DNA from: Patescibacteria group bacterium
GTDB lineage: Bacteria > Patescibacteriota > Patescibacteriia > JACQRZ01
DNA length: 64,000 nucleotides
Assembly (NCBI GenBank): GCA_038065255.1
Contig: JBBTRI010000004.1
Span: forward strand, 15,080 to 79,079
Reading direction: 5' to 3'
Shown here: one piece after another, positions 13,191 to 29,611 of the stretch
How positions within the stretch are numbered: position 1 is the stretch's first letter
Layout: every line of letters starts with the position of its first letter
Notes under the pieces: generated by a model
Databases searched by the model: none
Told to the model about the DNA's origin: nothing
The model's input: only the letters and a program-made list of their open reading frames with translations
Program-made: the position numbers and the translations under genes

Positions 13191-14288
13191 CTACGCAGAC
13201 TTTCCCCACATGGCAACGTTTATATCGAGCCTATGAAGGCGGCGCTCAGTGCTGACAATACCCACAAGAGGACGCATGTACTCGCGGAGGGTTGGAAATT
13301 CAGCAATAATTGCCTCGCTTATCTCGCGATACATCCAGCGCGCACTTTCTTCTGCCGCTCGCCAGTCATCGTAATAGTCCGTATCCCGATCAAACGACTC
13401 GTTGACGAGCAGAACAACTCCATCTTTTTTGCTCACCCGCCCTTCTTCAATATTTTCAAAAATGATATGCGCGCCGGTAAGGCATGTTTTAATAAAATTA
13501 GGATCCCAGGATTTTATTTTAATGGCTGAGTTCCATGTGCGGATGTAATCAAACCTATTTCCCACAGCCAATATCCACTCATTATGGTCGAGATCTTCGG
13601 ATGAAACTTTTTCCGTCCGCTTCTTCATGACAAGCATGCGGTTGAAAAGCATGCGGTCTGTGAGAAATTGAATCATCCCCTGTGGCATTTCGGGATAAAG
13701 CTTTGGGAGTCTTTCTTTGAGAAGTGCTTCGCTCTCTTGTTCGGAATGCTGAATAAGCATAGTTGCTTCTAAAGTCTCATCTTTATTTCCATGAAGAATA
13801 ATAGAACGATCATCCGTATTGATTCCAACAAGAACGGTATACACCTGCCGAGTTCCCCCTTCGATAAAAAGTGTTCGTGTGACACGGTCAAATTGGTCGC
13901 GTACCGCAGTCTGGCCGGCAACGGCTTTTGAAGTGTCGTAGTCATACCCCTTGCAACAAAAATCTTTCCCTTGGGAAGAAAAGTGATAGGTAACAGGAAT
14001 CAGGAGCGCCTTCCTCCTCTCGCCGGCGCTTCGTACGCGCCGCTCAAAATGCGGTTTGAATGCCGGCCAACCAATGTCGATCATACCGCCAATAGTACGC
14101 ACCGGGTACACCCACGCAAACGGCGCACCGGTAGCTTCAGTAAAATCTGCTCGCCCGTCCATGCATTTGATCGCCATGACGCTGATATTATATTTGGTAT
14201 CAAAATAACGCCGGTCTCCCTCTGTTTCATGATAGAGGCGTTCGGCTTCATCGCTCATTTTTGAAATGCGATTAATAGGAGTTGGCAT
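13191..14288 (-). CDS. hypothetical protein (365 aa) encoded within the complex-I-like operon
   Basis: 4-bp and 10-bp gaps to its neighbours. It contains a CMDGR (C-x-D-x-R) motif and an H...CC pair. I recognised no confident family. Confidence 0.5.
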   Translation of the reverse strand: MPTPINRISKMSDEAERLYHETEGDRRYFDTKYNISVMAIKCMDGRADFTEATGAPFAWVYPVRTIGGMIDIGWPAFKPHFERRVRSAGERRKALLIPVTYHFSSQGKDFCCKGYDYDTSKAVAGQTAVRDQFDRVTRTLFIEGGTRQVYTVLVGINTDDRSIILHGNKDETLEATMLIQHSEQESEALLKERLPKLYPEMPQGMIQFLTDRMLFNRMLVMKKRTEKVSSEDLDHNEWILAVGNRFDYIRTWNSAIKIKSWDPNFIKTCLTGAHIIFENIEEGRVSKKDGVVLLVNESFDRDTDYYDDWRAAEESARWMYREISEAIIAEFPTLREYMRPLVGIVSTERRLHRLDINVAMWGKSA

Positions 14289-14291
14289 AGA

Positions 14292-15836
14292 CTACACGTC
14301 ATTACCTGAATAGGATAAATTAAAACTTTTGTTTATGAGCGGAAAATCAGGAACCATATTCCCCTTCCCTGCATGTCCTAACACTGTCCAATTAATAAAT
14401 GATGGGTCGCGCACATCCACTCGACAAATTGATCCGTCTCCATCTGTTGCAACTACGTATATGATATCACCTCGCCAGCCTTCCACAATACCAACAGCAT
14501 AGGAGTTGGAAGGAAGTTTAAGGCGAGAAAGATCATTGCCAATACAGGGTCCTGAAGAAATATCACTCAATGCTTTTTGGAGGATATCGAACGAGGAATA
14601 CACCTCATCTATTCTGACACGAAATCGAGCATAGACATCACCTGAATGATATGATGGAATAGGAATCGAAAAGTGATCATATGCGGCATAGGGGTGGTCT
14701 TTGCGTGCATCGTATGCAAACCCAAGTGCTTTTGCAGCAACACCAACAACCCCATGATCCTTGGCAATTGTATAATCAAGGCTGCCTGTATGCCGCAAGC
14801 GCTCAATAAGCGAGCTATTTCGAAGCGCAACAGCCATAACTTCAGAAAAATCTTTTCGCACAGACAGAAGTGTCTGCCGTACCGATTCAAGGCAACCATT
14901 GGAAATATCTTTTTGAACTCCGCCAATCGTATTCACTCCACGCAAGAATCTGCTACCTATTAGAAAATCATTAAGCTGCATCACCACCTCCCTCAAACGC
15001 GCACCATGTGATCCGCCGAAATTAAATCCCGTGTCAAGCATGATGGCACCGATATCTCCAAAGTGATTTGCAAGCCGTTCCAGCTCACAGAATATCACAC
15101 GAATATATCGAGCTCGGATAGGAACAGGTATCGATCCCAATTCTTCGAAAGCTTGGCACAATGCAAGTGAATGACTAAATGAACTGTCTCCGCTCACGCG
15201 CTCAGAGAGCCGAAGCTTGTCTTTAAGGGCAAGGTGCTCAAATAACTTCTCACTGCCCTTGTGTGAGTATCCAAGCCGTGCCTCCAGATGAAGAATCTCT
15301 TCACCTGCTACGCTAAAACGAAAATGTCCCGGCTCAATAATGCCTGCATGCACCGGTCCAACGGGAATTTCGTAGATACCCTCACCCTGAACATGCCGAA
15401 AGGTAAACTCACCCCTTGCCGGAGATGGGCGCTCATTCCATGCAAAATCTTTTCTGAGTGGAAAGAGATTCTGAGGCCATTGTTCGTGAAGTATAAGTGA
15501 GCGAAGATTTGGATGCCCTATTGGTACAATTCCAAACAAGCTTGCTATTTTTCGTTCATGAATCGATGCCTGATGAATGATGGGTGTAAGTGAAGGAAAT
15601 GTCTCTTGCACGCATATGGTAGGTGTTTGAAAAATATGCTCTTCGGGATTGCTAAAAAGATACATAATCTTAAAATTCCCCGTCTGTTCTCGCTCATCAA
15701 AAGCAGTGATTGTTTTTAATGGAAAACCTCTCTCGTATAATTCTTTGCATGTTGCAAGAATATCGCCTTCAGGCACATTGTATATATTGAGGTTGTCGCA
15801 AGGCCTATTATTTTGTATTGGTAAAGGTTTCGTCAT
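14292..15836 (-). CDS. fused NuoC/NuoD-like subunit ([NiFe]-hydrogenase group 4 large-subunit homolog) lacking the NiFe-binding cysteines
   Basis: GPVHAGIIEPGHFRF and LGYSHKGSEKL are NuoD/HycE signatures. The N-terminal RxCGxC motif reads ERVSGDSS and the C-terminal DPCxxC motif reads DPSFINW. Confidence 0.8.
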   Translation of the reverse strand: MTKPLPIQNNRPCDNLNIYNVPEGDILATCKELYERGFPLKTITAFDEREQTGNFKIMYLFSNPEEHIFQTPTICVQETFPSLTPIIHQASIHERKIASLFGIVPIGHPNLRSLILHEQWPQNLFPLRKDFAWNERPSPARGEFTFRHVQGEGIYEIPVGPVHAGIIEPGHFRFSVAGEEILHLEARLGYSHKGSEKLFEHLALKDKLRLSERVSGDSSFSHSLALCQAFEELGSIPVPIRARYIRVIFCELERLANHFGDIGAIMLDTGFNFGGSHGARLREVVMQLNDFLIGSRFLRGVNTIGGVQKDISNGCLESVRQTLLSVRKDFSEVMAVALRNSSLIERLRHTGSLDYTIAKDHGVVGVAAKALGFAYDARKDHPYAAYDHFSIPIPSYHSGDVYARFRVRIDEVYSSFDILQKALSDISSGPCIGNDLSRLKLPSNSYAVGIVEGWRGDIIYVVATDGDGSICRVDVRDPSFINWTVLGHAGKGNMVPDFPLINKSFNLSYSGNDV

Positions 15837-17278
15837 AAGAGTTCTGCTGCTTTTGTTAGAAGTTCGGAAAGACCTGGCGGGAGATACACGCTCAGAATGA
15901 TAAGTATGAGTGAGAGAAGAATGGAAGGTGTAAGTACATACACATTAGATTCACCCCTTAAAACAGTTGGCGGCGCCTCACTGAACGCCATTGATACGAT
16001 GTGGCGCAAAAATCCCACAAATACAAGCACCAGCGAAACAAGAAGTATTACTGATGCAAAGCCATAGTGGGCTATGCCTGCAACTAAAATATGTATTTCT
16101 GTAATAAACATCCCAAAGGGCGGAACACCCGTGATAGCAAGAAGGCCACAAAACAGAAGAACGGTGCTCACAGGAAGAATTGTGATCATGCCTTTGATAT
16201 TTGAAATTCTAGAAAGGCCATATTTAAGAAAAAGAGAGCCGGATATGAAAAACAACAATGACTTTGCAATTGAGTGATAGATCATATGGAGTAAAGCTGC
16301 CCATATGCCCAATCCGCCAAATCCGCATCCCAGGGCGATAATACCCATATGTTCAATACTGGAATAGGCAAATAGCCGTTTGTATTTCTTTTGTGCCAAG
16401 ATAATAAACGCAGCAATGACCACTGACACCAGTCCAAAACCGATGAGCATCGTATTGGAAAACGATTGTTCGACCACCGAATCTGTAATGATTTTAAATC
16501 GAAAAATAGCGAGGAGTGCAACATTCAACAATGCACCCGAAAGAAGCGCACTAATCGGCGGGGGCGCCTTGCTGTGCGCATCCGGAAGCCACGTATGCAT
16601 GGGAGCAAAACCAACCTTTGTCCCATATCCTACAAGGATAAAAATAAAGGCAATCTTTAATAGATCAGGGTTAAATTCAGATACATGCTCGGAAAGTGAG
16701 TGCCAACCTGGAAATCCAAGCATGTCTACCGATGATTCACCGGCAAAAAAAAGCAGTGTTCCGAAAAAAGCCAATAGTAGTCCAATGGAATTAATCAATA
16801 GATATTTCCATGCCGCTTCTGTTGCTGAAGCCTTGTTGTAAAAGCTAATAAGGAGCGTGGTTGAAAGCGTCGTTGTTTCGATTGCAATCCACATGAGGAT
16901 GGGACTTGCTGAAAGGACACCGGCAAACATAGCAGCAACAAATAGTTGGTAGAGAAGAAAATATTGCTTTACTCTCCGAAAGCCGATAATTCCCTTCTTC
17001 ACTTCCTCGCGAAGATAGCCAATTGAATAGATTGAAGAAAAAACAGATACAATAATAACGGTAAGGAGTACGATACCGGAAAGGGCATCAAGAAAGAAAA
17101 ATGGTGCGAATGATAGTTCCTGTGCCGTATGAAGTTGCACAAACACTCCCACGGCGGTAATAATTTCTGCACAGGCACCAATACAATAAAGCGCATCGAA
17201 CATTCGAATATTTTTTCGAACAAGTACGCCAACAAGACCAATGAGAAGCGGGATGAAAACAAGAAATGTAAGTTCCAT
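15833..17278 (-). CDS. NuoN/NuoM/MrpD-family proton-conducting antiporter-like subunit (HyfF-like)
   Basis: PMHTWLPDAHSKAPPPISALLSGALLNVALLAIFRF matches the complex I antiporter-subunit signature. It has about 14 predicted TM segments. Confidence 0.8.
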   Translation of the reverse strand: MELTFLVFIPLLIGLVGVLVRKNIRMFDALYCIGACAEIITAVGVFVQLHTAQELSFAPFFFLDALSGIVLLTVIIVSVFSSIYSIGYLREEVKKGIIGFRRVKQYFLLYQLFVAAMFAGVLSASPILMWIAIETTTLSTTLLISFYNKASATEAAWKYLLINSIGLLLAFFGTLLFFAGESSVDMLGFPGWHSLSEHVSEFNPDLLKIAFIFILVGYGTKVGFAPMHTWLPDAHSKAPPPISALLSGALLNVALLAIFRFKIITDSVVEQSFSNTMLIGFGLVSVVIAAFIILAQKKYKRLFAYSSIEHMGIIALGCGFGGLGIWAALLHMIYHSIAKSLLFFISGSLFLKYGLSRISNIKGMITILPVSTVLLFCGLLAITGVPPFGMFITEIHILVAGIAHYGFASVILLVSLVLVFVGFLRHIVSMAFSEAPPTVLRGESNVYVLTPSILLSLILIILSVYLPPGLSELLTKAAELL

Positions 17279-17281
17279 AAA

Positions 17282-17938
17282 TCAATCGATTAATCGCTTC
17301 ATGGCACTTGTATCGAGTGAACCGAACTGCCGGAATATCAGTGAGGCAAGAATGGTTGCCATAATCACCCACACAAGAATACTTACGGTTATGCCAAGTT
17401 GTAACGCGGGATTCTGTTCGAGACCTGCAAAGAGAGCAAAAGAAATTATCCCATTCTCCAATGAAAGATATCCCAGCATCTGAGAAAAGATTCCCTTTCT
17501 GTTTATTATCAAAAAAAGTGAAATAAGGATGATTGCAAATGGCAGAAGGAGAAATTCTTGTCCGACATTATTCAATACGATAAGTTCTTTAAAAAGAGTT
17601 GAACGTGTAAGTGCCGTAAGGCAGGCAATAATAACAAGTGTCAGAGGCATCGAGCAATAACTGCCGGCTAAAAATGTGAGTTGATGTTTTCGGATAAGGA
17701 GGTAGAAAAAATATGGCGTGATGACAAGCTTGATTGCTATGGTTGCTGCCAACGCAACATAGAGCAATGGAGATGCTGCGCCAAGATAGGATGCAATGAG
17801 TAGTAATGCCAATACTGCGGTTTGGACAACATAAAGAATAACGGCCGTTTTGTTATTTTTAACCAAATGCAGCACAACAACAGTCAAAAAAATAATTGCT
17901 TCGAAAAGAAAAAGAAGTTGAGGAGATAGTGTAAACAT
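17282..17938 (-). CDS. small polytopic membrane subunit (HyfE / Mrp small-subunit-like)
   Basis: A 218-aa all-hydrophobic protein placed between the NuoH-like and NuoN-like genes, as HyfE is in hyf operons. The assignment rests on position, size and the LENGI motif, and the family assignment is uncertain. Confidence 0.45.
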   Translation of the reverse strand: MFTLSPQLLFLFEAIIFLTVVVLHLVKNNKTAVILYVVQTAVLALLLIASYLGAASPLLYVALAATIAIKLVITPYFFYLLIRKHQLTFLAGSYCSMPLTLVIIACLTALTRSTLFKELIVLNNVGQEFLLLPFAIILISLFLIINRKGIFSQMLGYLSLENGIISFALFAGLEQNPALQLGITVSILVWVIMATILASLIFRQFGSLDTSAMKRLID

Positions 17939-17942
17939 ATTC

Positions 17943-18923
17943 TTATAGTGTTAATCCGAGAGCAACAATACAGATGACAAAGGAAGTTGCAAGAAGACTC
18001 GGCAATCGAAATATGCGAAGCTTTGCAATACTCGATTCAATGAGAGCGATAGCCCCGCAAAGTATACATATCTTTATCGCGAAGTAGACAAGCCCTATGA
18101 ATAACGCAATGGGATCGAATGTATGCGCAATGCCGTAAGGAAAAAAAATACTTGCTGCCAGTGAAAGAAAAATCATATATTTTTGGGCAGCTGCCCATTC
18201 TATGAGAGCAAGCCGCTTGCCGGAATATTCCAATATCATCGCTTCATGAATCATCGTCAACTCCAAATGCGTTGATGGATTGTCAAAAGGATACCGCCCC
18301 GTTTCAGCAAGAAGCGCAATAAAAAATCCGCTAAATGCTAGCACGACTGGCGCCAAGTTCGACAAAGAGAGCGACCCTACCCCATTTGAAATACCAAACA
18401 TGTTTGTAGTGTGCGTGAGAAGTGCGAGTACAAAAAGTGAAAGGACAAGCGTCCCTTCGGCAAGTGAGGAGACCATCATTTCTCGACTTGAACCAAATCC
18501 GCCGAAAGCTCCTCCTGTATCAAGCCCAGCTAAAGCAAGAAAAAATGTACCAAATGCCATGCAGTAAACAAGCACAAGAAAATCCCCACTGCCACTCTTT
18601 GCAAAAGCTGTCGTAATGAGAGGTATATTGAAACCAACAAAAAGAAAGAGTGAACACAGGATATAGGGAGTAAAGCGAAATATCCACGAAGCATCCACAC
18701 TCAAAACTTCATCTTTATGGAATAGCTTCCAGAGATCACGATAGGGCTGCAGCACAGAAGCGCCACACCTCTTTTGCAATCGTGCCTTGAGCATTCTGGT
18801 AATTCCAATACAGAGCGGGGAGAAAATCGGAATAATGATGAGTTGAATAAGTGAAGCAAAGAAAAATGACATACTGAAAATATTACAGCGCAAGTGTTGC
18901 GAGAAGAACAATAAGCGCTCCAA
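17943..18923 (-). CDS. NuoH / HycD / HyfC-family membrane subunit
   Basis: RYPFDNPSTHLELTMIHEAMILEYSG matches the NuoH signature (PFD..E.E.EL..G...EYSG). Confidence 0.8.
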   Translation of the reverse strand: MERLLFFSQHLRCNIFSMSFFFASLIQLIIIPIFSPLCIGITRMLKARLQKRCGASVLQPYRDLWKLFHKDEVLSVDASWIFRFTPYILCSLFLFVGFNIPLITTAFAKSGSGDFLVLVYCMAFGTFFLALAGLDTGGAFGGFGSSREMMVSSLAEGTLVLSLFVLALLTHTTNMFGISNGVGSLSLSNLAPVVLAFSGFFIALLAETGRYPFDNPSTHLELTMIHEAMILEYSGKRLALIEWAAAQKYMIFLSLAASIFFPYGIAHTFDPIALFIGLVYFAIKICILCGAIALIESSIAKLRIFRLPSLLATSFVICIVALGLTL

Positions 18924-20925
18924 AGATATAGACTATATACATATTCACATTACCGCTCTGTATGGCGCGTGCACGATCCGAAATGGCGTTTATAACCCTT
19001 GTAAGACGATCATAGAATACAGCCCTATAAATATCATGGAGTTCCAATGTAATAACATTACGTTGAGGAAAATAGCGCGCATGAGAATCTGAATAATCCG
19101 TAACCACGCTTTTAGTTGGAAATAAGATAGCCCTGAAAATGGTAACCAGCGAACGACTAAACCCCGTTGCTGTTATTTCCATTCGAGATGTAAGGTCTGT
19201 GCCACAATCCCATGTCCTTCCATATCTCACGCGTTGGCGAGGAAAAAATAATTTCACACCCAAAAGAATACTGACGAACATGATACATAATCCTAATGTA
19301 ATGATTGGCATTGATACGGCAGAAAATCCGTTCTGCACAACGAGAAGCCCAGCAGCCGTATCGAACACACGCTCCTGTGAAAGTTGTGGAAATTGTCGAA
19401 CAATGACTTCCAGCGTACTAACAATCGTTGTTGCTCCAAGACCAAACAATAACGTAAGGAGTGCACAGAATGCCATGCTTATTCTCATGCTTATAGCCAC
19501 TTCTTGGGCAGCAGATGCATGCTCGCTGCGCGGACGGGCTAAAAACATTATGCCAAATGCTTTTACAAAACATGCTGCCGCAAGACCCCCGGTTAAGGCA
19601 AGCGCACCGATAGCAGAAATAGTAACTATCTTTGGAATAAGACTTAAAGATATAACCCCCTGAAAGAGAGCTTGAAACGTAAGCCACTCACTTACAAATC
19701 CATTAAACGGTGGCAGTGCGGAAATGGCCATCGATCCGATAAGAAATAGGAAGGCTGTCTGAGGCATGCGCTTAATAAGCCCGCCGTATTCCTCTATATT
19801 ACGTGTATGTGTTGCTGAAATTACTGATCCGGCACCCAAAAAGAGCAGAGCTTTAAACAATGCGTGATTTACCGTGTGGTAGAGAGCGGCAACACTCGCC
19901 AATACGGCAAGCCCATACTGATGCGAAGACACAAAAACAAGCGAACTCCCAAGACCCAATAAAATAATGCCGATATTTTCAATACTATGATAGGCAAGTA
20001 ATTTCTTACTATCATGCTCTGAAAGTGCATAAAGTACTCCCAGTAGCGAAGAAATGATTCCAAGGACGAGCACCACCAAACCCCACCACTGCGGGATGTC
20101 GGGAAAAAAATCAAGGCATATGCGAAAAAGCATATATATGCCTGTTTTGATCATAACGCCTGACATCAGCGCAGACACATGGGATGGAGCCGCAGGATGT
20201 GCAGCAGGCAACCAAATATGGAGGGGAATAATGCCGCATTTTATGCCGAACCCTATAAGGGCAGCGATAAACACAGCATCACGAACTAAGAATGGAATAA
20301 GATTGGAGGATGTTCGAATGGTATCAAAATCAAACGATCCAACGGAATGATAGATGAGTAAAAAGGCCAAAATGATAAACGCCGTACCAACATGAGTCAT
20401 AATAAAATATAGCGAACCTGCGCGTACATTTTCCTGCACTCTTCGTTCATACATAACAAGAACATACGATGCCAACGCCATAATCTCCCATACTATGAGA
20501 AAATAGAGCGCATGATTCGCCGTTACAACAAGAATCATGCTTACGATAAAAACGTTGTAAAAAAATGATAAAATTCCTATGGAATATTTTTGATAAAAAT
20601 GCTTGACGTAACCAATCGCGTATATCGAACACAACAAAGACAGAAGAGAAATAATTCCCATGAAGAACGCGGATAATAAATCAACTTTAATTGATATGGT
20701 AAGGAGTGGGAATGGCGAGGAAATAGTGTATACGGGAATCACTCGGCTTATAATAACGTGTGCGGAAAAAAGAAGCCCCCCGATTGATCCCAGTATGGCA
20801 AAGAAAGCCCCTAAAAGATTGGCGAGTTCGTCGTATTCATACAACAAGAGTGACACACACGCACCAATTGCAAAGAGTGAGATAATAGCAAAAAAACCAG
20901 TCTGAGAGAGGATACTGTCAATCAT
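18883..20925 (-). CDS. NuoL / MrpA / HyfB-family antiporter-like subunit (680 aa)
   Basis: IIPLHIWLPAAHPAAPSHVSALMSGVMIKTGIYMLFR, with a length and TM pattern like HyfB/NuoL. Confidence 0.8.
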   Translation of the reverse strand: MIDSILSQTGFFAIISLFAIGACVSLLLYEYDELANLLGAFFAILGSIGGLLFSAHVIISRVIPVYTISSPFPLLTISIKVDLLSAFFMGIISLLSLLCSIYAIGYVKHFYQKYSIGILSFFYNVFIVSMILVVTANHALYFLIVWEIMALASYVLVMYERRVQENVRAGSLYFIMTHVGTAFIILAFLLIYHSVGSFDFDTIRTSSNLIPFLVRDAVFIAALIGFGIKCGIIPLHIWLPAAHPAAPSHVSALMSGVMIKTGIYMLFRICLDFFPDIPQWWGLVVLVLGIISSLLGVLYALSEHDSKKLLAYHSIENIGIILLGLGSSLVFVSSHQYGLAVLASVAALYHTVNHALFKALLFLGAGSVISATHTRNIEEYGGLIKRMPQTAFLFLIGSMAISALPPFNGFVSEWLTFQALFQGVISLSLIPKIVTISAIGALALTGGLAAACFVKAFGIMFLARPRSEHASAAQEVAISMRISMAFCALLTLLFGLGATTIVSTLEVIVRQFPQLSQERVFDTAAGLLVVQNGFSAVSMPIITLGLCIMFVSILLGVKLFFPRQRVRYGRTWDCGTDLTSRMEITATGFSRSLVTIFRAILFPTKSVVTDYSDSHARYFPQRNVITLELHDIYRAVFYDRLTRVINAISDRARAIQSGNVNMYIVYIFGALIVLLATLAL

Positions 20926-20928: not shown

Positions 20929-21456
20929 TTACGAATTTTTTTGATCTGGGGAGATGTCATCAAGAATGGTATGAAGCGACTTCAATATTGTGAGTGGTGA
21001 TGGCGGATCTCCCGGAATAGCATACTGTACCGGCACTACTGTATGCGCACCATCACACACTGCATATGATCCTTTAAATATTCCACCGTCAATTGCGTCA
21101 TCCCCAAGCGCAACAACAATATTCGGAGTTGGCATTGCTTCATAGGTCCGCACGAGAGCTTCTCTCATATTGCTACTTACCGGCCCGGTAACAATAAGCA
21201 TATCGGCATGTCGAGGCGATGCAACAAAACGAATGCCAAACCGCTCGACGTCATAATATGCATTCCCCAATGCTACCAACTCTTGTTCGCATGCGTTCGT
21301 CGAACCGGCTGTAACCACTCGAATAGCGAGCGATCTATTAAAAAGTTTTTTTATTTTTTTTTCCAATGCAAGGCCCAAATCAAGAACTTCATTCGAACCT
21401 AAACATTCTGCACGAGAAATAACAACCTGCTTCGTTGACAGCGTCTTATACAGCAT
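20929..21456 (-). CDS. NuoB-like / hydrogenase small-subunit-like protein with a degenerate Fe-S cluster site
   Basis: ASPRHADMLIVTGPV is the NuoB hallmark. The cluster ligand positions read STNACEQE (CC becomes AC), ALGDDAIDGG (C becomes D) and IPGDPP (CPP becomes DPP). Its start lies 3 bp after the atpC stop. Confidence 0.8.
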   Translation of the reverse strand: MLYKTLSTKQVVISRAECLGSNEVLDLGLALEKKIKKLFNRSLAIRVVTAGSTNACEQELVALGNAYYDVERFGIRFVASPRHADMLIVTGPVSSNMREALVRTYEAMPTPNIVVALGDDAIDGGIFKGSYAVCDGAHTVVPVQYAIPGDPPSPLTILKSLHTILDDISPDQKNS

Positions 21457-21459: not shown

Positions 21460-21876
21460 CTACGCGGTATTTTTTCGATGTTTTCTTACGACATGCAAAC
21501 GAGCAAGTTCTTTTTCCAGTTTCGCTGCGATGATTGCGTATTCAGTTGTATCAAATGCTTGTTGGGTAAGGAGCTCTGCTGCACGCCTGTGCGCTTCTTG
21601 AGCGCGTTCTTCGATGATTTCTTCCACGCGCTCGGCAGTATCGGCTAAAATAATGATTTGCGTATTCTGCACTTCGAGCATGCCGGTGGATACAACCATG
21701 GGAATTATTTCGCCATCTTTTTTAATCGTAAGTTCACCGGATTTCAATAAACCTACCAACCCGACATGCTGCGGCAGTACGGTAATCTCACCGCTCTGTG
21801 TGGGAATGGTTACCTGGTCTACCTCGCCGTCATAGATGATCCGTTCCGGCGTTATTATACGAAGTGCAGTGGGCAT
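21460..21876 (-). CDS. atpC: F1 ATP synthase epsilon subunit
   Basis: LRIITPERIIYDGEVDQVTIPTQSGEITVLPQHVGLVGLLKSGEL is typical of the epsilon N-terminal beta-sandwich. Confidence 0.85.
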   Translation of the reverse strand: MPTALRIITPERIIYDGEVDQVTIPTQSGEITVLPQHVGLVGLLKSGELTIKKDGEIIPMVVSTGMLEVQNTQIIILADTAERVEEIIEERAQEAHRRAAELLTQQAFDTTEYAIIAAKLEKELARLHVVRKHRKNTA

Positions 21877-21887
21877 ACTTGATGTGT

Positions 21888-23264
<1,377 letters not shown>

Positions 23265-23291
23265 TCATAATTCATAATCGGTAAGATAGTG

Positions 23292-24167
23292 TTATTCCAA
23301 AGCAGCGCGGCCAGATGAAATTTCTGCAATTTCCTGCGTAATGCCCGCTTGGCGGATTTGGTTATACGTGAGGGAAAGATCGGAAAGCAGATCAGAGGCT
23401 GATGATGTCGCATTGTGCATCGCGAGCATACGTGCGCTATGTTCGGATGCTTCGCTTTCGAGGACTGCTTGAAAAATCTGCACATCCAGAAGACGAGGTA
23501 AGACTGCCTTGATTACTTCTGTATCCGACGGCTCAAAAAGAACCGGTAAAGTTGCTGTTGTGCCTTCCCTGTGGTGTTCCTCAACCTCGAGCGGCAGGAG
23601 TGTTTTGGCAACCGAAGACTGTTTAACCGAGGAAACAAAATGCATGGCAACAAGTATGACTTTATCAAGCTCGCCGCGGATATACATATCGCTGATAACA
23701 TGGGAGATTGGCGCAACATCCATAATAGAACGAGTGATATCATTTTTTGGAAAATCCGCCTTGACAGTGTACCCGGAGCGAGCAGCAAGCTCTCCCCCTT
23801 TCTTGCCTAGAGAAAAAAGTAGGGTATGTGTTGCTCCAGATTCTTTCTCGCGAGCTACGGTACGCTGGACCTGTGCAAGAAGTGCATTATTGAATCCTCC
23901 GCAAAGCCCTCGATTGGTACTCACAAGAACAATGCCTAATGTTTTCACAGGACGTTTTGCAAGGAGTGGATGAAGCTGCTCATCATGATTTGGATCCAAG
24001 CGACTAAGTATATCCCATGCAGTTGTTGCATAGGGACGTGTTGCAAGAGCCGCAGTCACTGCACGCCTCATTTTGGAAGCGGAAACAAGCTCCATTGCCT
24101 TTGTCATTTTTTTTGTATTGCCGATTGATCGGATCTGCCGGCGGATTGCAAGCGTACCTTTTGCCAT
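23292..24167 (-). CDS. atpG: F1 ATP synthase gamma subunit
   Basis: The N-terminus MAKGTLAIRRQIRSIGNTKKMTKAMELVSASKMRRA and the C-terminal helix are typical of gamma. Confidence 0.9.
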   Translation of the reverse strand: MAKGTLAIRRQIRSIGNTKKMTKAMELVSASKMRRAVTAALATRPYATTAWDILSRLDPNHDEQLHPLLAKRPVKTLGIVLVSTNRGLCGGFNNALLAQVQRTVAREKESGATHTLLFSLGKKGGELAARSGYTVKADFPKNDITRSIMDVAPISHVISDMYIRGELDKVILVAMHFVSSVKQSSVAKTLLPLEVEEHHREGTTATLPVLFEPSDTEVIKAVLPRLLDVQIFQAVLESEASEHSARMLAMHNATSSASDLLSDLSLTYNQIRQAGITQEIAEISSGRAALE

Positions 24168-24169
24168 AC

Positions 24170-25702
24170 TTACAGCTGTGCCGTAGCATTAAAATCTGTG
24201 ATTGCTTTTTTGAGAAGGTGTTCTGTTTCTTCGTTAAGCTCGCCAGTTTCGCGGATCGACTGGAGTACGATTTTCTCGTTTGCACTTTCAATATAATTGA
24301 TAAAGTGTTCTTCCCATTTTTGGATTTTATCCACTTCAATTGTATCGAGGTGTCCGTTCACGCCTGCATACAGCAGAACAACCTGCTGTTCAACGGGACG
24401 TGGTTTGTATTGTCCTTGCTTGAGTAATTCTGTAAGCCGCTTACCCCGATTGATTTGTTTTTGCGTTGTTTCATCCAGATCTGATCCGAATTGAGCGAAT
24501 GCGGCAAGTTCGCGGTACTGTGCCAAGTCAAGACGGAGACGGCCGGCAACTTTTTTCATCGCTTTTGTTTGTGCAGATGAGCCGACACGAGACACCGACA
24601 AACCAACATTCAAAGCGGGGCGTATGCCCTGGTAAAAGAGATCTGTTTCCAGGTAAATTTGTCCATCGGTAATGGAAATAACGTTTGTGGGAATATATGC
24701 AGATACATCGCCTGCCTGCGTTTCAATAATAGGCAGAGCGGTCAATGAACCGCCACCATTGTCAGCATTTAGTTTTGCAGCGCGCTCCAACAAACGTGAA
24801 TGGAGGTAAAAAATATCGCCAGGATATGCCTCGCGCCCCGGCGGTCGACGCAATAAAAGCGAAAGTTGGCGATACGCAACCGCATGCTTGGAAAGATCAT
24901 CATAGACAATAAGTACGTCCTTACCCTGTTCCATAAAGTATTCTCCCATTGCGCATGCTGCGTAGGGAGCTATAAAACTCATGGCCGCCGGATCGGATGC
25001 ACCTGCAAGTACCACTACTGTATAATCCATTGCGCCTTCTTCGGAAAGGCGTGAAACAATTTTTGCAATTTTAGATTCCTTCTGTCCTATTGCTACATAG
25101 ATACAGAATACGGGAGCGCCTTTTGCATATTCACTCTTTTGGCTGATGATGGCATCGAGCGCCACGGCAGTTTTGCCTGTTTGGCGATCGCCGATAATCA
25201 GTTCTCGTTGCCCTCTGCCAATTGGTATCATTGCATCTACTGCCGTTATGCCCGTAATGAGCGGCTGCCGTACCGATTGTCGCGTGATAACACCCGGAGC
25301 GATTTTTTCAATAGGATAAAAGGTATCCGTAGCAATGGGCCCCTGCCCATCAATAGGTGCTCCAAGAGCATCAACAACACGACCCACAAGACCGGGACCT
25401 ACCGGAACTTCCAGAATACGTCCCGTAGGTTTTACGCGATCGCCCTCTCTTAAACTCCTGAAATCTCCCAAAATCATTGCGCCAACAGTATCTTCTTCAA
25501 GATTCAGTACGACACCCATAACCGTTGAACCATCATGGGAAAGAAATTCAAGCATTTCCGATTGACGCGCATCTGCCAACCCGGAGATTTTTGCAATACC
25601 ATCCCCTACTTCGATAACATTACCTTCTTTTTGGACCTGTAGATCGCTTTTGAAAGATTCAAGCTGCTTCTGAAGTGATTGTATGAGATATTCTGATGAC
25701 AT
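24170..25702 (-). CDS. atpA: F1 ATP synthase alpha subunit
   Basis: [17 protein letters not shown]-loop, and 510 aa. Confidence 0.95.
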
Positions 25703-25716
25703 AATAACGTATTCAG

Positions 25717-26127
25717 TTAGGCATGGGCACTTTTTTGTAAATGGCGACGTAATGCATGGAGGCGTCCCGCATCGCTAGCATCGACGACAAGGTCTTGTGC
25801 TTTCACTCTGAATCCTCCGATGAGATCCGCATCGACAGTAAAGGAAATATTGCTCTTTTTCCCGTATGATGCATGGATCATTTCCTCGAACATCTTTTTT
25901 TCATTGGCAGTGGGTTGGCTTGCGGTTGTAATAGTTACGCGAACAGAGCCCTCGAGGCGACTTGTGACATCACGCAACGATCGTGCTACCGCACCTGCCG
26001 TTCGAAGCAATCCTTGCCTAGCTAAAAAAGATACAAATTCATGTATCATGGTATCAATCTGCTGATGTGTTTTGCCTTTTGCCAGAGCAAGGAGGCTTTC
26101 CGCATATCGCTGGGGGGCTATCTTCAT
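25717..26127 (-). CDS. atpH: F1 ATP synthase delta (OSCP) subunit, short form
   Basis: The call rests on position between atpF and atpA and on OSCP-like helices. At 136 aa it is shorter than usual. Confidence 0.7.
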
Positions 26128-26627
26128 ACGTTTTTTTTGAGCCGATCAACGGCTTTTTTAGCAAGATCTTTTGAAATCTTTTTTTCACCGCTTGTTTGTG
26201 CTATCGATGCAGATGCCTGCACAACGAGATCAACAATATCTTTTTTTGCATCTTCGAGCATTTGTTGTTTTTCCTGTTCTATGCGCGTCTTGGCCTGAGT
26301 AACAACGCGCTTCACTTCTTCACGAGTTTGCTTCACTGTTTCTTGCCGATGCTGCTCCGCTAATGCCGATGCTTCTTCCAAAATCTTTTCTGCTTCTTTC
26401 TTTGCCTTGAGAACGATTTGCTTATAGGTCTGGTCGGTGAGTTTCAGCTTCTCTTCAGCTGCATCGGCATCTGCCAACCCTTTTTCGATCTTTGCAGTGC
26501 GCTTTTCAAGCAATGCAAGAAGGGGCTTATACAAGAGCTTGTACAGGGCAAAAAAAAGAATTGCGAAATTGACAAGTTGGGCTACAAGCAACCTCCAATC
26601 AACACCGAGTGATGTGAGGATTTCCAT
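26124..26627 (-). CDS. atpF: Fo ATP synthase b subunit
   Basis: A single N-terminal TM segment followed by a long charged helix (KEAEKILEEASALAEQHRQE...), in the expected operon position. Confidence 0.75.
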   Translation of the reverse strand: MEILTSLGVDWRLLVAQLVNFAILFFALYKLLYKPLLALLEKRTAKIEKGLADADAAEEKLKLTDQTYKQIVLKAKKEAEKILEEASALAEQHRQETVKQTREEVKRVVTQAKTRIEQEKQQMLEDAKKDIVDLVVQASASIAQTSGEKKISKDLAKKAVDRLKKNV

Positions 26628-26648
26628 AGATGGTGTATGACTAAAAAG

Positions 26649-26963
<315 letters not shown>

Positions 26964-26998
26964 TTATTGTAGCGCACATTTTGAAGGTGTCAACAGGT

Positions 26999-27181
26999 CT
27001 ACTGACCTTTCCTAATCATCTTAACTGATAAAATGTATGATTTTGAGTCGGATTCGATATTCTGGAGCCTCAAAAAACCGCAATTGTATCCGTAGATACG
27101 ATGAGGATTTTTTGAGGCGAAGAACGAGAAGGCGGCAAAAATCATAGGCTTTAGCGTTAAGATGATTAGGAAAGGTCAGTA
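26999..27181. repeat. 183-bp element bounded by perfect 26-bp terminal inverted repeats (MITE-like or structured-RNA candidate)
   Basis: tactgacctttcctaatcatcttaac at 26999-27024 is the exact reverse complement of gttaagatgattaggaaaggtcagta at 27156-27181. A nested inverted repeat lies inside (gcctcaaaaaa ... ttttttgaggc). Confidence 0.6.
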
Positions 27182-27187
27182 AGTGCA

Positions 27188-27216
27188 TAAAAAAACCTCG
27201 CTGTGAGTAGCGAGGG
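27188..27216 (-). terminator. rho-independent terminator for the minus-strand gene ending at 27227
   Basis: On the minus strand the sequence reads cctcgct-actcac-agcgagg followed by a run of seven T. Confidence 0.55.
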
Positions 27217-27226
27217 AGGTGAATAC

Positions 27227-27838
27227 CTATCTTGAAGGATTTGTTGCTTGCTCGTTTTTGAGCTCATCTACTGAACCGGGGTTCTCCCAGGGGAAAAATA
27301 CTGCCTCGTGACAATCGATATCTCTGAGCTTATCATGAGTTCCTAGCGGAGTATCCGAACCGGGATACATAGACTGAATAATCATCGCGGGAGTATCCCC
27401 ATCAAAACGGGGTTGCTCTAGACTATAAATGACCGTAAGTGTTTTCGTCAGTGGAGCAGGAACTGTTGGGTCTTTTACGCGCCATGCCCGTGTCCACTTA
27501 TTCGGATTAAATTCTTCTATATCAAAGGGGATATCGAATAGGTGTACGGCTGAAGCCCAGCCAACATAGGATGGGTACTCGATTTCAACACTCCACGTAC
27601 CGCAGGGATCGGGCTTATTAGAAAGCACTTCTAGCGCTTCATCAACCAACTCTGAGAGGATAAAGGAGTCGGTAAGAAATTGGTTGTCATATTTCCACCG
27701 ATAGAAATTTCCTGCAAGCGGCTGCCCACTCTGGCGAAAACATGTCGACCGAAGGCGGTTGCGCTGACGAACCGGCAGAATGATGCGAATGGTTGAACCC
27801 TGATGTATCAATGAACAAGTATAGATGGTTTCCATCAT
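27227..27838 (-). CDS. hypothetical protein
   Basis: ORF with a probable ATG start at 27838 (MMETIYTCSLIHQG...), just downstream of a consensus promoter. The track ORF starts at an upstream TTG that coincides with the -35 box. I recognised no family. Confidence 0.4.
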   Translation of the reverse strand: MMETIYTCSLIHQGSTIRIILPVRQRNRLRSTCFRQSGQPLAGNFYRWKYDNQFLTDSFILSELVDEALEVLSNKPDPCGTWSVEIEYPSYVGWASAVHLFDIPFDIEEFNPNKWTRAWRVKDPTVPAPLTKTLTVIYSLEQPRFDGDTPAMIIQSMYPGSDTPLGTHDKLRDIDCHEAVFFPWENPGSVDELKNEQATNPSR

Positions 27839-28274
27839 CTCGATTGCCATTATACACCAAAATGCCCCTTTTGTCAATAAAAAACCTCGCTAGAGAGCGA
27901 GGAGCTAGATGGAATTTGTAATCGGATACCGCTTTCTCAAGAAGTACCGCACGCTTATAGAGTGGGTGCGCATTTCTTTTCAGTTCAAGGTCCTTTCGAG
28001 TAGATGATCGTAGCTTCTGCTCTGGTATGAAATTTAATGCAGCAAAAATAGCCATACCTATAAGACCTAACAGTATGAAAGCTACAAAGATCCAACCAAA
28101 CCATGGCCACGTAATCACTCCTTTACTCGTAGAAGCTGCGAGGGTAAAGAAAGAGGTTATCGCACCAAACACAGCACAACCGACAGAACCATAGAGGGGG
28201 TCAGCGTAACGCACCTCTATTTTGTCTACTTCACTAAGGAAAATATATGAAGAAGCTCTATAAAAAAATATCAT
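27687..28274 (-). CDS. hypothetical small membrane protein (two TM segments); 3' end uncertain
   Basis: The N-terminal two-thirds (about 27906-28274) is a convincing two-TM protein. The frame reads through the hairpin and promoter and overlaps the next gene by about 150 bp, so the true stop may differ (frameshift or genuine overlap). Confidence 0.35.
   Translation of the reverse strand: MIFFYRASSYIFLSEVDKIEVRYADPLYGSVGCAVFGAITSFFTLAASTSKGVITWPWFGWIFVAFILLGLIGMAIFAALNFIPEQKLRSSTRKDLELKRNAHPLYKRAVLLEKAVSDYKFHLAPRSLARFFIDKRGILVYNGNRDDGNHLYLFIDTSGFNHSHHSAGSSAQPPSVDMFSPEWAAACRKFLSVEI
27849..27877 (-). promoter_or_regulatory. sigma-70-type promoter with a near-leaderless start
   Basis: Minus strand: TTGACA, a 17-nt spacer, TATAAT, then ATGATG 11 nt later. 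It directly follows the hairpin at 27878-27902. Confidence 0.5.
27878..27902 (-). terminator. terminator-like hairpin (second copy of the aaaaaacctcgct..agcgagg motif)
   Basis: The stem is cctcgct/agcgagg, with the T-run on the minus strand. It lies inside the reading frame of ORF 27687..28274, so its function is ambiguous. Confidence 0.4.
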
Positions 28275-28516
28275 CGTTCAAAAGTGAGGCTGCGGAACGA
28301 AAGTTTTGGGAAACCAACGATTCAACTCAGTATATTGATTGGCGAAAAGCAAAAAAAACAAGATTCCCAAATCTCAAACCTTCAACAGAAACTATTTCTC
28401 TCCGTCTGCCACAGGGAATGCTGGAAGAGATTAAGATTCGAGCGCAAAAACGCGATGTTCCCTACCAGTCGCTTATCAAAATCATGCTTGATAGTAAACT
28501 GCGCGAGGATAGATAG
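28247..28516 (+). CDS. BrnA-like (CopG/RHH-family) antitoxin, apparently orphan
   Basis: AAERKFWETNDSTQYIDWRKAKKTRFPNLKPSTETISLRLPQGMLEEIKIRAQKRDVPYQSLIKIMLDSKL matches the BrnA/COG3514 pattern. No BrnT-like ORF lies upstream. Confidence 0.55.
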   Translation: MKKLYKKISSFKSEAAERKFWETNDSTQYIDWRKAKKTRFPNLKPSTETISLRLPQGMLEEIKIRAQKRDVPYQSLIKIMLDSKLREDR

Positions 28517-28517
28517 T

Positions 28518-29258
28518 CTAGTGGTGCGCTTCTTCGGTTGCCATTTTGATAAACACGATCGTGAGCATGGAAAACACCAATGCCTGGATAAAGCCAACAA
28601 ACAACTCAAGCGCCATAAACGGCAGAGGTACAATATACGGCACGAGCGTGTACATCACGATCAAAAGCACTTCTCCGGCAAAAATATTGCCAAACAAACG
28701 AAAAGAGAATGACACCAATTTTGCCACTTCTGAAATCAGTTCCAAAATCCCAACAAAAAAACTTATGGGGCTTTTGAAATTTAAAAATTTTGAAATATAT
28801 TTGGAAAACCCAATACTCATGACGCCGACCACCTGAATAGTAATAACACTGATAAGGGATAATGCGATAGTAAAGTTAAGGTCGGCCGCACTCGCACGAA
28901 TAAACGGTATAATAATTCGCTTTCCTTCATGTTCTTCCCAAAGCCCCACAGATCCCATGCCGGGTAAAAGCTCCGTCCAATTTGTGAGAATGATGAATAA
29001 GAAAATAGTTGCAATGAGAGGAAAGAATCTTTTGGTCTGTTCCTTATTGCCCATGACGCCTTCAACAATCCCAAACAAAAAATCGATAACAACCTCTGCA
29101 ATATTTTGAGCGCCCCTCGGCACGAGCGTAAGCTTGCGCGTTATGACATATCCCGCAACGCACAAAAAAACTATGATGATCCACGAAATCAGTATACTGT
29201 TCGTAACAGGAAACGAACCGATATGAAAAAGTGTTTCTGCGCTAATGGAGATATTCAT
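28518..29258 (-). CDS. atpB: Fo ATP synthase a subunit
   Basis: RLFGNIFAGEVLLIVMY (the conserved Arg-containing motif), and five TM segments. Confidence 0.85.
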   Translation of the reverse strand: MNISISAETLFHIGSFPVTNSILISWIIIVFLCVAGYVITRKLTLVPRGAQNIAEVVIDFLFGIVEGVMGNKEQTKRFFPLIATIFLFIILTNWTELLPGMGSVGLWEEHEGKRIIIPFIRASAADLNFTIALSLISVITIQVVGVMSIGFSKYISKFLNFKSPISFFVGILELISEVAKLVSFSFRLFGNIFAGEVLLIVMYTLVPYIVPLPFMALELFVGFIQALVFSMLTIVFIKMATEEAHH

Positions 29259-29611
29259 AGTTCTTTTTTATCTGAAGGCGAATTAGATGTATCATCAAGG
29301 ATTTCTTTTGTTTTGCGATACACAAGCACCGTTGAAATCACAATTGCAAAGAGAATACTTATAAGCAGAATAAGTGGTTTTGTTTTGAATGTAGAATCAA
29401 GAAATGCACCAAGAATCGCAAACCCAACAAGCGGCAATGCAATGAAGTACCCCATTTCAAGCGCTATGCCAAGCGCATGAAATTGTTTATTTTGTTCATT
29501 CTGTGCCACATTCAAGAGGTTTTTATAAAAACTAACAAGGACATTTGAAATGTCTTCATATAGTATAGTATACCACCTATAGGCATTTTTTGCAATTGAT
29601 GCCATTGACAA
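29255..29611 (-). CDS. AtpZ/AtpI-like small membrane protein preceding atpB
   Basis: The call rests on position immediately 5' of atpB (with a 4-bp overlap) and on two TM helices in the pattern GIALEMGYFIALPLVGFAILGAFLD. Confidence 0.5.
   Translation of the reverse strand: MSMASIAKNAYRWYTILYEDISNVLVSFYKNLLNVAQNEQNKQFHALGIALEMGYFIALPLVGFAILGAFLDSTFKTKPLILLISILFAIVISTVLVYRKTKEILDDTSNSPSDKKEL

Follow-up and report, generated by a model that had tools for sequence, protein, structure and literature searches.

A NuoB-like small subunit with carboxylates at former [4Fe-4S] ligand positions in an Ehr-type module next to a patescibacterial ATP synthase operon

Energy-converting-hydrogenase-related (Ech-related, Ehr) gene clusters resemble those of group 4 hydrogenases, encode a NiFe-less large subunit and have no assigned function (PMC6349859, PMC10284858, PMC4378227, bioRxiv 10.1101/765248). 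Here, we describe an Ehr module in a 64,000-nucleotide stretch of DNA from a Patescibacteria group bacterium (NCBI GenBank assembly GCA_038065255.1, contig JBBTRI010000004.1, positions 15,080 to 79,079 of the forward strand), referred to as the window throughout, with emphasis on the gene of its NuoB-like small subunit, EhrS, at 20929-21456 on the minus strand. Judged from its sequence, the encoded protein is the EhrS of a six-subunit Ehr/Hyq-type complex that would have lost every redox cofactor site.

The Ehr of Geobacter sulfurreducens (GSU0739-45) was reportedly described by Coppi in 2005, and the Ehr family is said to have been defined by Marreiros et al. in 2013. Sulfobacillus Ehr comprises the same six syntenic genes (PMC4378227). 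Jaffe et al. (2020) found a monophyletic clade of Ehr large subunits without metal-binding cysteines in the Patescibacteria (Candidate Phyla Radiation, CPR), and described these as unable to interact with H2 (PMC7304191). An association of formate dehydrogenase (FDH) with Ehr has been hypothesised (PMC6349859), and the Geobacter Ehr subunits increase on formate (PMC7894505). The Hyq 'endo-hydrogenase', known from Azorhizobium caulinodans (hyqRBCEFGI) and further diazotrophs, has six subunits, of which HyqI conserves Cys55, Cys58, Cys112 and Cys152 and HyqG lacks the CxxC motifs; deletions of the rhizobial genes affect H2 recycling, which is genetic evidence for a role in that process (PMC3357923).

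The window module belongs to the known Ehr family, and NiFe loss in its CPR members has already been published. In the Ehr literature that we searched, to which the founding papers of 2005 and 2013 do not belong, there is no mention of ligand loss in the small subunit, of its replacement by carboxylates, of embedding in atp operons or of carbonic anhydrase neighbours. Within that literature, the carboxylate rule, the independent Cys-to-Asp exchange, the atp-operon embedding and the carbonic anhydrase neighbours reported below appear to be undescribed.

Former cluster ligands of EhrS and its relatives

EhrS is encoded by an uninterrupted open reading frame (ORF) with an ATG start. Residues 54-162 match Pfam PF01058 (Oxidored_q6; NADH:ubiquinone oxidoreductase 20-kDa subunit / hydrogenase small subunit) with an E value of 3.7e-23. 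When all PDB chains were searched with phmmer, the top matches were HycG of the E. coli formate hydrogenlyase (7z0s_G, E 1.1e-25) and MbhJ of P. furiosus (6cfw_J, E 1.4e-25), with 37-38% identity to EhrS, and the NDUFS7/NuoB chains of complex I ranked behind them at ~1e-21. The phmmer residue alignments of EhrS with HycG, MbhJ and NDUFS7 run without gaps across all three ligand motifs and yield the following assignments.

20929-21456, minus strand: EhrS, NuoB/HycG/HyqI-like small subunit of 175 amino acids, assigned by PF01058, structure alignments, homologues, the ratio of nonsynonymous to synonymous substitution rates (dN/dS) and the AlphaFold2 (AF2) fold
First motif: AGSTNACEQE in EhrS (STNACEQE being residues 52-59), CGGCNGCEIE in HycG, SGSCNGCDIE in MbhJ, ACCAVE in NDUFS7
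Second motif: GDDAIDGG in EhrS (residues 118-125), GACGNSGG in HycG, GACPTGGS in MbhJ, GSCANGGG in NDUFS7
Third motif: PGDPP in EhrS (residues 148-152), PGCPP in HycG, MbhJ and NDUFS7
21298-21300, minus strand: codon ACG of T53, which replaces the first Cys of CxxC (by alignment)
21289-21291, minus strand: codon TGC of C56, the sole retained ligand Cys (by alignment)
21097-21099, minus strand: codon GAC of D120, which replaces the third cluster Cys (GxCxxxGG to GDDAIDGG; by alignment)
21007-21009, minus strand: codon GAT of D150, which replaces the fourth cluster Cys (PGCPP to PGDPP; by alignment)

The four [4Fe-4S] ligand columns of EhrS read T53, C56, D120 and D150, leaving one cysteine, with threonine and two aspartates elsewhere. 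A preliminary description of the window had already noticed that STNACEQE keeps one Cys and that GDDAIDGG and IPGDPP exchange Cys for Asp, and the alignments with HycG, MbhJ and NDUFS7 bear this out, with three ligand columns devoid of Cys. It had further called the NuoB hallmark perfect. The motif ASPRHADMLIVTGPV is indeed present at residues 79-93, but in the form found in group 4 hydrogenases (RH...TGPV, as in HycG and MbhJ) and not in that of complex I (RQ...AGT); this hydrogenase form is common to many Cys-containing hydrogenase-type cluster representatives. An alignment artefact was ruled out as the source of the ligand loss, because, among the 150 top-ranking representatives of clusters formed at 50% identity, 94 hold four Cys in the same columns; about two dozen of the 150 are Cys-poor, with mixed D/E/N/S/T/G/A. 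The AF2 monomer of EhrS is of moderate confidence, with a predicted local distance difference test score (pLDDT) of 72 and ~50 around residues 50-70, the loop carrying positions 53 and 56. According to Foldseek, the model matches the NuoB, HycG and MbhJ folds, with a root-mean-square deviation from MbhJ of 3.8 Å over 133 columns.

The substituted residues are conserved in close relatives. Among the 120 closest EhrS homologues from a collection of 5.8 billion proteins (64-100% identity; labelled, where named, Patescibacteria, Syntrophales, Actinobacteria, Thermoleophilia or Lentisphaeria), position 53 is Thr in 113 and Ser in 7, and C56, D120 and D150 are each present in 120/120. EhrS proteins are 55-80% identical across phyla. 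In a comparison with L089, a relative of 78% amino acid identity that has the same operon, the dN/dS of EhrS is ~0.08 (Nei-Gojobori), alongside 0.06-0.14 for atpA, atpG and atpC and 0.06-0.13 for three other Ehr genes, all of these ratios being approximate as dS is near saturation. Purifying selection thus acts on EhrS no less strongly than on the ATP synthase genes. Operon genes are spaced by 3-4 nt or overlap by 4 nt throughout, and Ehr synteny is kept in more than 44 loci. Pseudogene status, a possibility raised in the preliminary description, is excluded by the intact ORFs, the dN/dS of 0.08 and the invariant substituted residues: EhrS is intact and constrained, and its pattern is kept in 120/120 homologues.

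To place the pattern in a wider context, one genome per species was scanned, which returned 80 loci with two gene orders, and the ligands were extracted via tblastn. Order 1, in which the small-subunit gene comes first as in the window, is spread over numerous lineages of Patescibacteria and was seen in Thermoleophilia, Actinomycetes, Cryobacterium sp. Y50 (cultured; L038, DTDD), Raoultibacter and Syntrophus, and also in Desulfobacterales, Fibrobacteria, Lentisphaeria and metagenome-assembled genomes (MAGs) labelled Bdellovibrionales. Its four-column patterns include TCDD (19), SEGD (15) and DCDD (7), these counts and the neighbour counts below being raw and the sequences not phylogenetically independent; DADD, DADN, TEGD, DCGD, SEDD, DVEN, DPDD, DTDD and more were found as well. 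Order 2, with the small subunit last, has CCCC in rhizobia and Methylococcales and D-x-D-N in Methanospirillum lacunae (L066, DADN), Altiarchaeota, Dehalococcoidales and Chloroflexi. By profile search, Woesearchaeota, Nanoarchaeota and Thermoplasmata were added to the D-x-D-N carriers, with D53 in 120/120 sequences, P, T or A at position 56, D120 in 119/120 and N150 in 119/120. A protein search for the Geobacter EhrS with the D-x-D-N alignment returned archaeal and Dehalococcoidia members only. The SEGD and D-x-D-N sister clades contain no Cys in any of the four columns. Cys56 is retained in the TCDD and DCDD subclades only and is replaced elsewhere by E, A, P, T or V. All large subunits of both orders, including the partners of CCCC small subunits, carry the NiFe-less SGD(S/T/E)...SYSG motifs.

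Across the 60 cluster-less small subunits from genome loci, the four columns together hold one Asp/Glu in one sequence, two in 47 and three in 12, and never zero or four. Glu at position 56 pairs with Gly at 120 in 19 of these sequences, and a residue other than Glu at 56 pairs with Asp at 120 in 38, leaving three exceptions. An Aquamicrobium sp. MAG (L078, 9530-9988) encodes a rhizobial Hyq-type small subunit reading C-A-D-D, a partial loss of the cluster site that again has Asp at 120 and 150. With the ligand columns excluded, this protein is 79-81% identical to rhizobial CCCC proteins versus 63% to the window EhrS. Going by these sequences, the Cys-to-Asp exchange at 120 and 150 clearly recurred independently inside the Cys-retaining rhizobial Hyq clade. 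A Cys (TGY) to Asp (GAY) exchange takes two nucleotide changes, and its recurrence hence points to selection for a carboxylate. More broadly, the columns point to carboxylates at the former ligand positions being selected, conserved in number though shifting in position. The view of the preliminary description that the Asp substitutions are notable gains strength from this conserved number and from the independent exchange at the same two positions.

The neighbour-joining tree of small subunits, which carries no support values, was relied on for L078 only, where pairwise identity decides. In the same unsupported tree the archaeal sequences with D-x-D-N form a clade separate from that of order 1, which is suggestive of a third cluster loss. 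The cluster ligands were lost independently at least twice, perhaps three times. When cluster-less groups were compared with CCCC groups, neither arm subunit showed a newly gained Arg or Lys, at 80-85% conservation or more, by which the carboxylates might be neutralised. The notable changes between the two groups are L58Q, beside the second ligand, and G212E in the large subunit.

The six-gene module and its cofactor sites

On the minus strand, the gene order is atpI-like-atpB-E-F-H-A-G-D-C, EhrS, NuoL/HyfB-like, NuoH/HycD-like, HyfE/NuoK-like, HyfF/NuoN-like, NuoC-NuoD/HycE-like, a 365-amino-acid protein and a deoxyhypusine-synthase-like gene. The five Ehr genes that follow EhrS were assigned as follows.

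18883-20925, minus strand: EhrA, NuoL/HyfB-like antiporter-like subunit of 680 amino acids (PF00361, E 5.5e-58)
17943-18923, minus strand: EhrB, NuoH/HycD-like subunit (PF00146, E 2.4e-40; HycD 7z0s_D, E 8.7e-50), whose true start is probably an internal ATG
17282-17938, minus strand: EhrC, HyfE/NuoK-like membrane subunit of 218 amino acids (weak PF00420 match, E 5.5e-4; syntenic in all small-subunit-first loci)
15833-17278, minus strand: EhrD, HyfF/NuoN-like antiporter-like subunit of 481 amino acids (PF00361, E 3.8e-50)
14292-15836, minus strand: EhrL, fused NuoC-NuoD/HycE-like large subunit of 514 amino acids (PF00346 and PF00329; HycE 7z0s_E, E 2.6e-78)

In the residue alignment of EhrL with HycE, RVSGDSSFSH and LSYSGND of EhrL lie opposite RVCGICGFAH and PCYSCTD. 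S215, S218, S508 and G511 stand at the positions of the four NiFe cysteines of HycE, all of which are gone. Of the former NiFe pocket, E212, D217, K503, S508, Y509 and D513 are invariant in 45 orthologues, and S215 and S218 (or Thr) are nearly so. A search for substitute Cys ligands elsewhere in EhrS and EhrL revealed no conserved set; only column 56 (28/60), column 122 in the archaeal clade and C227 of EhrL (34/45) stand out.

The membrane subunits keep their charged residues. At a conservation of at least 95% in 43-48 orthologues per subunit, we find E147, K229, K260, K358 and E413 in EhrA (43 orthologues), E134, K221 and K339 in EhrD, E148, E156, E207, E221, E227, E242 and E296 in EhrB, and E161 in EhrC. 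We take the conserved Glu and Lys residues to be the canonical Glu of transmembrane helix (TM) 5, Lys of TM7 and TM12 positions of the antiporter-like subunits of complex I and Mrp.

No ferredoxin-like subunit is encoded in the Ehr operon, as judged by Fer4 Pfam matches, and no real gene of the 64-kb window contains a CxxCxxCxxxC motif. Clustering of the flanking ORFs within 6 kb of the 44 order-1 loci revealed no recurrent redox partner (Fer4, FDH or NuoEF). The six Ehr genes stand alone amid housekeeping genes in Thermoleophilia, in Actinobacteria and in a 3-Mb genome. An Elp3-like radical-SAM enzyme is encoded at 48116-50002 of the window, and its retention indicates that the cluster did not disappear through a general loss of Fe-S capacity from the genome. 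The preliminary description had reasoned that a complex without the N2-type cluster has no canonical electron path and that, given the NiFe-less large subunit, it cannot be counted as a redox enzyme of a known type. All that was computed here fits this reasoning: S215/S218/S508/G511 of EhrL, the missing ferredoxin subunit, the lack of a recurrent partner at 44 loci and the absence of Cys from the four columns of the sister clades.

A separate arrangement was seen in the Lentisphaeria (L002/L003, 3459-17996), where two Hyf-like sets lie in tandem, one divergent and the other the cluster-less Ehr set. The latter is followed by a 252-amino-acid Fer4-NuoB fusion that keeps CCCC, the only such locus, and a hexapeptide-repeat (gamma-carbonic-anhydrase-like) protein is encoded 1 kb downstream.

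By family definition, the window module shares with the Ehr of Geobacter and CPR the NuoL/N-, NuoH- and HyfE-like membrane subunits and the NiFe-less large subunit. With Hyq it has in common the six structural subunit families and the NiFe-less SGD(S/T)..SYSG large subunit, and the small subunits are 53-60% identical to EhrS. However, HyqI has CCCC in at least 20 rhizobial loci versus TCDD in the window, the Hyq genes are ordered B-C-E-F-G-I instead of small subunit first, and Hyq stands out by its H2-recycling genetics and its respiring, quinone-containing hosts. The rhizobial CCCC group corresponds to Hyq, and the window complex is therefore a Hyq/Ehr-type module that has lost the last cluster site too. 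HycG (7z0s_G) and MbhJ (6cfw_J) are closest to EhrS in sequence and fold and share with it the hydrogenase-type ASPRHAD..TGPV motif, but in contrast to HycG, MbhJ and EchC, EhrS has no CxxC...C...C ligands, no NiFe partner and no 2x[4Fe-4S] subunit of the HycF/MbhN/EchF type. NuoB/Nqo6/PSST of complex I resemble EhrS in their PF01058 fold, in their interface position with NuoD- and NuoH-like subunits and in the attachment to antiporter-like subunits. Unlike complex I, the window lacks the tandem CC, N2 and NuoA, I, J, E, F and G, has six genes compared to the 11-14 genes of a nuo operon, and would not be expected to perform quinone chemistry. The module resembles the Mrp antiporter in having two PF00361 subunits of the MrpA/MrpD type, in which the Glu of TM5, the Lys of TM7 and the Glu of TM12 are conserved, and a similar way of working, by redox-independent ion translocation, may be inferred; Ehr differs by its NuoH-like subunit and its two-protein hydrophilic arm.

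ATP synthase and carbonic anhydrase neighbours

The module is flanked on either side by genes that recur at other loci.

21460-29611, minus strand: F-type ATP synthase operon (atpI-like, atpB, E, F, H, A, G, D, C), assigned from ORFs and translations, with Pfam for atpC and the atpI-like gene
13191-14288, minus strand: CsoSCA-type beta-carbonic anhydrase (CA) homologue of 365 amino acids, assigned by family motif, Pfam, AF2 and Foldseek

The ATP synthase operon ends 3 nt ahead of the EhrS start codon. Genes of the atp type lie within 6 kb in 8/44 order-1 loci, seven of which are labelled as CPR lineages and one of which has no label. The atp genes are directly followed by Ehr in the window, L016 and L089-L091 (the last three from protein look-ups); Ehr sits between atpG and atpD in a Saccharibacteria MAG (L021, 5560-18992); Ehr precedes atpB-E-F-H in L030 and L031; and atp and Ehr are separated by a gap of 1-4.5 kb in L011, L027 and L039. 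In Patescibacteria, at least four arrangements thus place the Ehr module beside the F-type ATP synthase operon or within it.

Two further observations concern the ATP synthase operon of the window. Between atpB and atpE lies a stretch of ~1.5 kb (26955-28517, minus strand) with two overlapping ORFs (27227-27877 and 27687-28274) that have no Pfam match. It looks like an insertion inside the operon, as atpE of L089 follows ~150 nt after atpB. The c subunit (26649-26954, minus strand) reads GPGIGIG...AFTEAIAIY. Compared with the Na+ signature of Ilyobacter tartaricus, which we take to be Q32, E65, S66, T67 and Y70, it has only the Glu and the Tyr, which suggests an H+-coupled ATP synthase.

Two more genes recur upstream among the 44 loci, both confirmed by Pfam and both from one clade: 9 loci have a DedA/VTT protein, and 5 have an exchanger of the NhaP type (Na+/H+). 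In this SEGD subclade of MAGs labelled Bdellovibrionales or Moranbacteria (L025, L033, L035, L036, L041-L043, L052 and L053), the DedA/VTT gene is directly upstream of the small subunit, and in five of these loci the NhaP-type exchanger is found further upstream.

The CsoSCA-like gene begins 3 nt after the EhrL stop. In an alignment of 13 sequences of its family, C42-x-D44-x-R46, H102 and C112, corresponding to the beta-CA zinc site and catalytic dyad, are invariant. Pfam CsoSCA_cat is matched by 11/13 family members (best E 1.4e-8), and the window protein reaches an E value of 0.007, under the gathering score, with no other Pfam match. The AF2 model of the 365-amino-acid protein (pLDDT 86.6, predicted template modelling score, pTM, 0.85) finds CsoSCA 9g4t as best Foldseek match (E 4.6e-17, template modelling score, TM, 0.73), followed by 2fgy and 8thm. 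On this sequence and model evidence, the neighbour is predicted to be a CA homologue of the CsoSCA type. It lacks the CsoSCA N-terminal domain, is encoded in a non-autotrophic Patescibacteria genome and belongs to a small family (12 clusters found) with members in other CPR contigs. The deoxyhypusine-synthase-like gene (12189-13181, minus strand; PF01916, E 1.1e-44) follows after 9 nt and apparently shares its transcription unit.

CsoSCA-like homologues are also found directly upstream of the small subunit in L085 and on the opposite strand beside the module in L031, L048 and L029, the last being a weak match. The gene directly follows atpC without an Ehr module in L086 and L087, and lies beside neither in L001 and L088. 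Other CA families occur as well: a canonical Pro_CA (E 2.9e-46; L066, 2183-2833, minus strand) is divergently upstream of the cluster-less module in the cultured methanogen Methanospirillum lacunae Ki8-1, and a double Pro_CA_2 protein (E 3e-22) directly follows EhrL in L018. A beta-CA motif scan of the 26 CCCC loci revealed no beta-CA beside these Cys-retaining modules. About 85% of the cluster-less loci, including loci in large genomes, have no CA within 6 kb. Because CA genes are few per genome, the adjacency in ~7 of ~50 loci, in several orientations and with three families, is far more than expected by chance.

DabAB and NDH-1MS/CupA likewise encode a beta-CA-fold protein beside complex-I-type (PF00361) proton-conducting subunits. 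The window CA differs in being CsoSCA-like (Pro_CA or Pro_CA_2 elsewhere) and not DabA (PF10070) or CupA/ChpY, and such neighbours are found at ~15% of the cluster-less loci.

A SulP/STAS transporter gene (L066, 15716-17482, plus strand) is located 5 kb downstream of the Methanospirillum lacunae module, and in Methylococcales SulP transporter genes lie immediately ahead of the Hyq-type operons that retain Cys (L076, L079 and L082). A 254-amino-acid ORF after atpC in the Saccharibacteria MAG (L021, 19098-19859; CxDGR...HxxCG) was not counted as a CA, since it had no Pfam match and hhalign found no significant similarity to the CsoSCA-like family. In L010 (9276-9617), a weak homologue of this ORF immediately precedes the small-subunit gene.

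Possible functions and further observations

From the missing NiFe, proximal-cluster and ferredoxin-type ligand sets, the intact ion residues and the shared operon with atp genes, we infer a redox-independent ion translocator. What we regard as the best explanation, with about even confidence, is a proton or cation translocator that would work together with the ATP synthase, with a carboxylate-lined pocket and with the CA as a supplier. Such a complex would transfer no electrons and would move protons or cations in a manner that is Mrp-like in principle. It would share the ion gradient of the ATP synthase in a fermentative Patescibacteria cell without a respiratory chain, and one of its tasks might be to convert or regulate a gradient that ATP hydrolysis has built up. 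Atop the NuoH-like channel, the former cluster pocket, lined by two to three carboxylates, may combine with the conserved, polar pocket of EhrL where NiFe would formerly have been bound, giving a charged element that binds protons or cations and does not relay electrons. In the simplest reading, the adjacent CA would be a local supplier of protons and bicarbonate for proton-translocating machines, which could also account for CA genes adjoining the ATP synthase alone.

Several points weigh against this explanation. Genetic evidence links rhizobial Hyq, the nearest relative with retained Cys, to H2 recycling (PMC3357923), MrpB, C, E, F and G are absent, and the DedA and NhaP neighbours, coming from a single clade, do not count as independent. 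The spatial arrangement of residues 53, 56, 120 and 150, and with it the pocket geometry, is taken from homology. The CA adjacency could mean a more specific CO2-handling role. The main point that a simple antiporter leaves unexplained is the conservation of the hydrophilic arm: in EhrS and in the invariant residues of the former NiFe pocket it exceeds the apparent need of a passive antiporter cap, and hints at binding or chemistry there.

A more specific proposal, which we consider rather improbable, is that the cofactor-free Ehr would be the proton engine for CO2 hydration or HCO3- dehydration by a docked beta-CA, in analogy to DabAB and to NDH-1MS with CupA in cyanobacteria, and that the now acidic pockets of N2 and NiFe would form a proton conduit. 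Precedents for complex-I-type subunits driving CO2 hydration exist (bioRxiv 10.64898/2026.03.13.711513; PMC6981117). In its favour, three CA families adjoin cluster-less modules, the CsoSCA-like one in four orientations, the motif scan found none beside the 26 Cys-retaining loci, and the window protein combines a full zinc-site and catalytic-dyad signature with a confidently modelled CsoSCA fold; the SulP transporters upstream of Methylococcales Hyq-type operons would agree with it. It is harder to reconcile with the ~85% of cluster-less loci that have no nearby CA and with the occurrence of the same CsoSCA-like gene without Ehr, either after atpC or alone, so that this gene may be tied to general proton handling. 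The window protein is, moreover, outside the DabA and CupA families and has no obvious membrane anchor.

We consider it unlikely that the former cluster pocket has become a new metal site that plays a catalytic or regulatory part of its own, in which Asp120, Asp150, Cys56 or Glu56 and Thr, Ser or Asp53 would bind Zn2+, Fe2+, Mn2+, Mg2+ or Ca2+ in a mono- or binuclear manner. The two to three carboxylates conserved among four positions with positional plasticity, the convergent Cys-to-Asp exchange and the lack of a newly conserved Arg or Lys partner would all fit such a site. The identity of the ligands, however, varies greatly by clade (T/S/D; C/E/A/P/T/V; D/G/E; D/N/E), as catalytic metal sites do not usually do, and the carboxylates could merely cap backbone amides that formerly hydrogen-bonded the cluster. 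Ligand positions of a cubane site are ~6 Å apart, and a single ion would need a collapse of the loops.

We are doubtful, too, that the complex is still a redox enzyme, with an unconventional cofactor at Cys56/Asp/Asp and in the Ser/Asp/His-rich EhrL pocket or with a separate partner such as FDH. We know of no [4Fe-4S] site with one Cys, two Asp and one Thr, and to our knowledge Patescibacteria generally lack quinones. In the sister clades none of the four columns holds Cys, no Fer4, FDH or NuoEF recurs near the 44 loci, the operon has no subunit for electron input, and the independent losses, at least two, argue that the cluster is dispensable for the core function of the clade. A redox role would agree with rhizobial Hyq, the nearest Cys-retaining relative, which has the same NiFe-less large subunit and whose deletions affect H2 recycling (PMC3357923), with the FDH-Ehr hypothesis (PMC6349859) and the rise of Geobacter Ehr on formate (PMC7894505), and with the high conservation of the former NiFe pocket. 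That EhrS is a decaying relic, a pseudogene or the dead remnant of a hydrogenase operon, which would likewise lose all cofactor ligands, is hardly credible given the intact, tightly spaced ORFs, the dN/dS of 0.06-0.13 for four Ehr genes, the homologues of 64-80% identity across phyla with invariant substituted residues and the synteny in more than 44 loci.

Returning to the redox-independent ion translocator, the family has been known for ~20 years and is routinely annotated as 'hydrogenase' or 'NADH-quinone oxidoreductase subunit B'. The missing cofactor sites, the strong purifying selection and the atp-operon setting turn the redox-independent ion machine into a specific, testable proposal. 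It bears on the management of membrane potential in fermentative, ultra-small Patescibacteria and DPANN cells and on what the NuoB/NuoD/NuoH junction adds to complex I coupling once electron transfer is removed. Metabolic reconstructions should not count these Ehr genes as H2 or NADH metabolism. The swap from cluster to carboxylate, with its one independent recurrence, offers a clean evolutionary example of the retirement of an Fe-S site.

The cluster-less machine ranges over Patescibacteria, DPANN archaea, Actinobacteria, Bdellovibrionales-labelled MAGs, a methanogen and others. A bolder reading, to which we attach a low probability, would be that this is a widespread cofactor-free complex-I-type machine in which N2 was replaced by a proton or cation site of two to three carboxylates, which is driven by the ion gradient of the ATP synthase in its operon or regulates that gradient, and which in some lineages is coupled to a docked CA. 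If true, complex-I-type proton conduits would have been paired with CO2/HCO3- chemistry for a third time, independently, and the machine would amount to a natural experiment on what the coupling machinery of complex I does without electron transfer.

As for the remainder of the window, no tRNA or Rfam matches were found in it. Two ORFs on the minus strand, of 1087 amino acids (52651-55914) and 443 amino acids (42702-44033), have no Pfam match at E 1e-3. Another minus-strand gene (33161-34615) encodes 484 amino acids with a signal-peptide-like N-terminus, two similar motifs, HNHLRPDHE and YHNHLKPER, and a weak multicopper-oxidase/cupredoxin match (E 6e-4); its product may be a protein with a duplicated cupredoxin-like domain.

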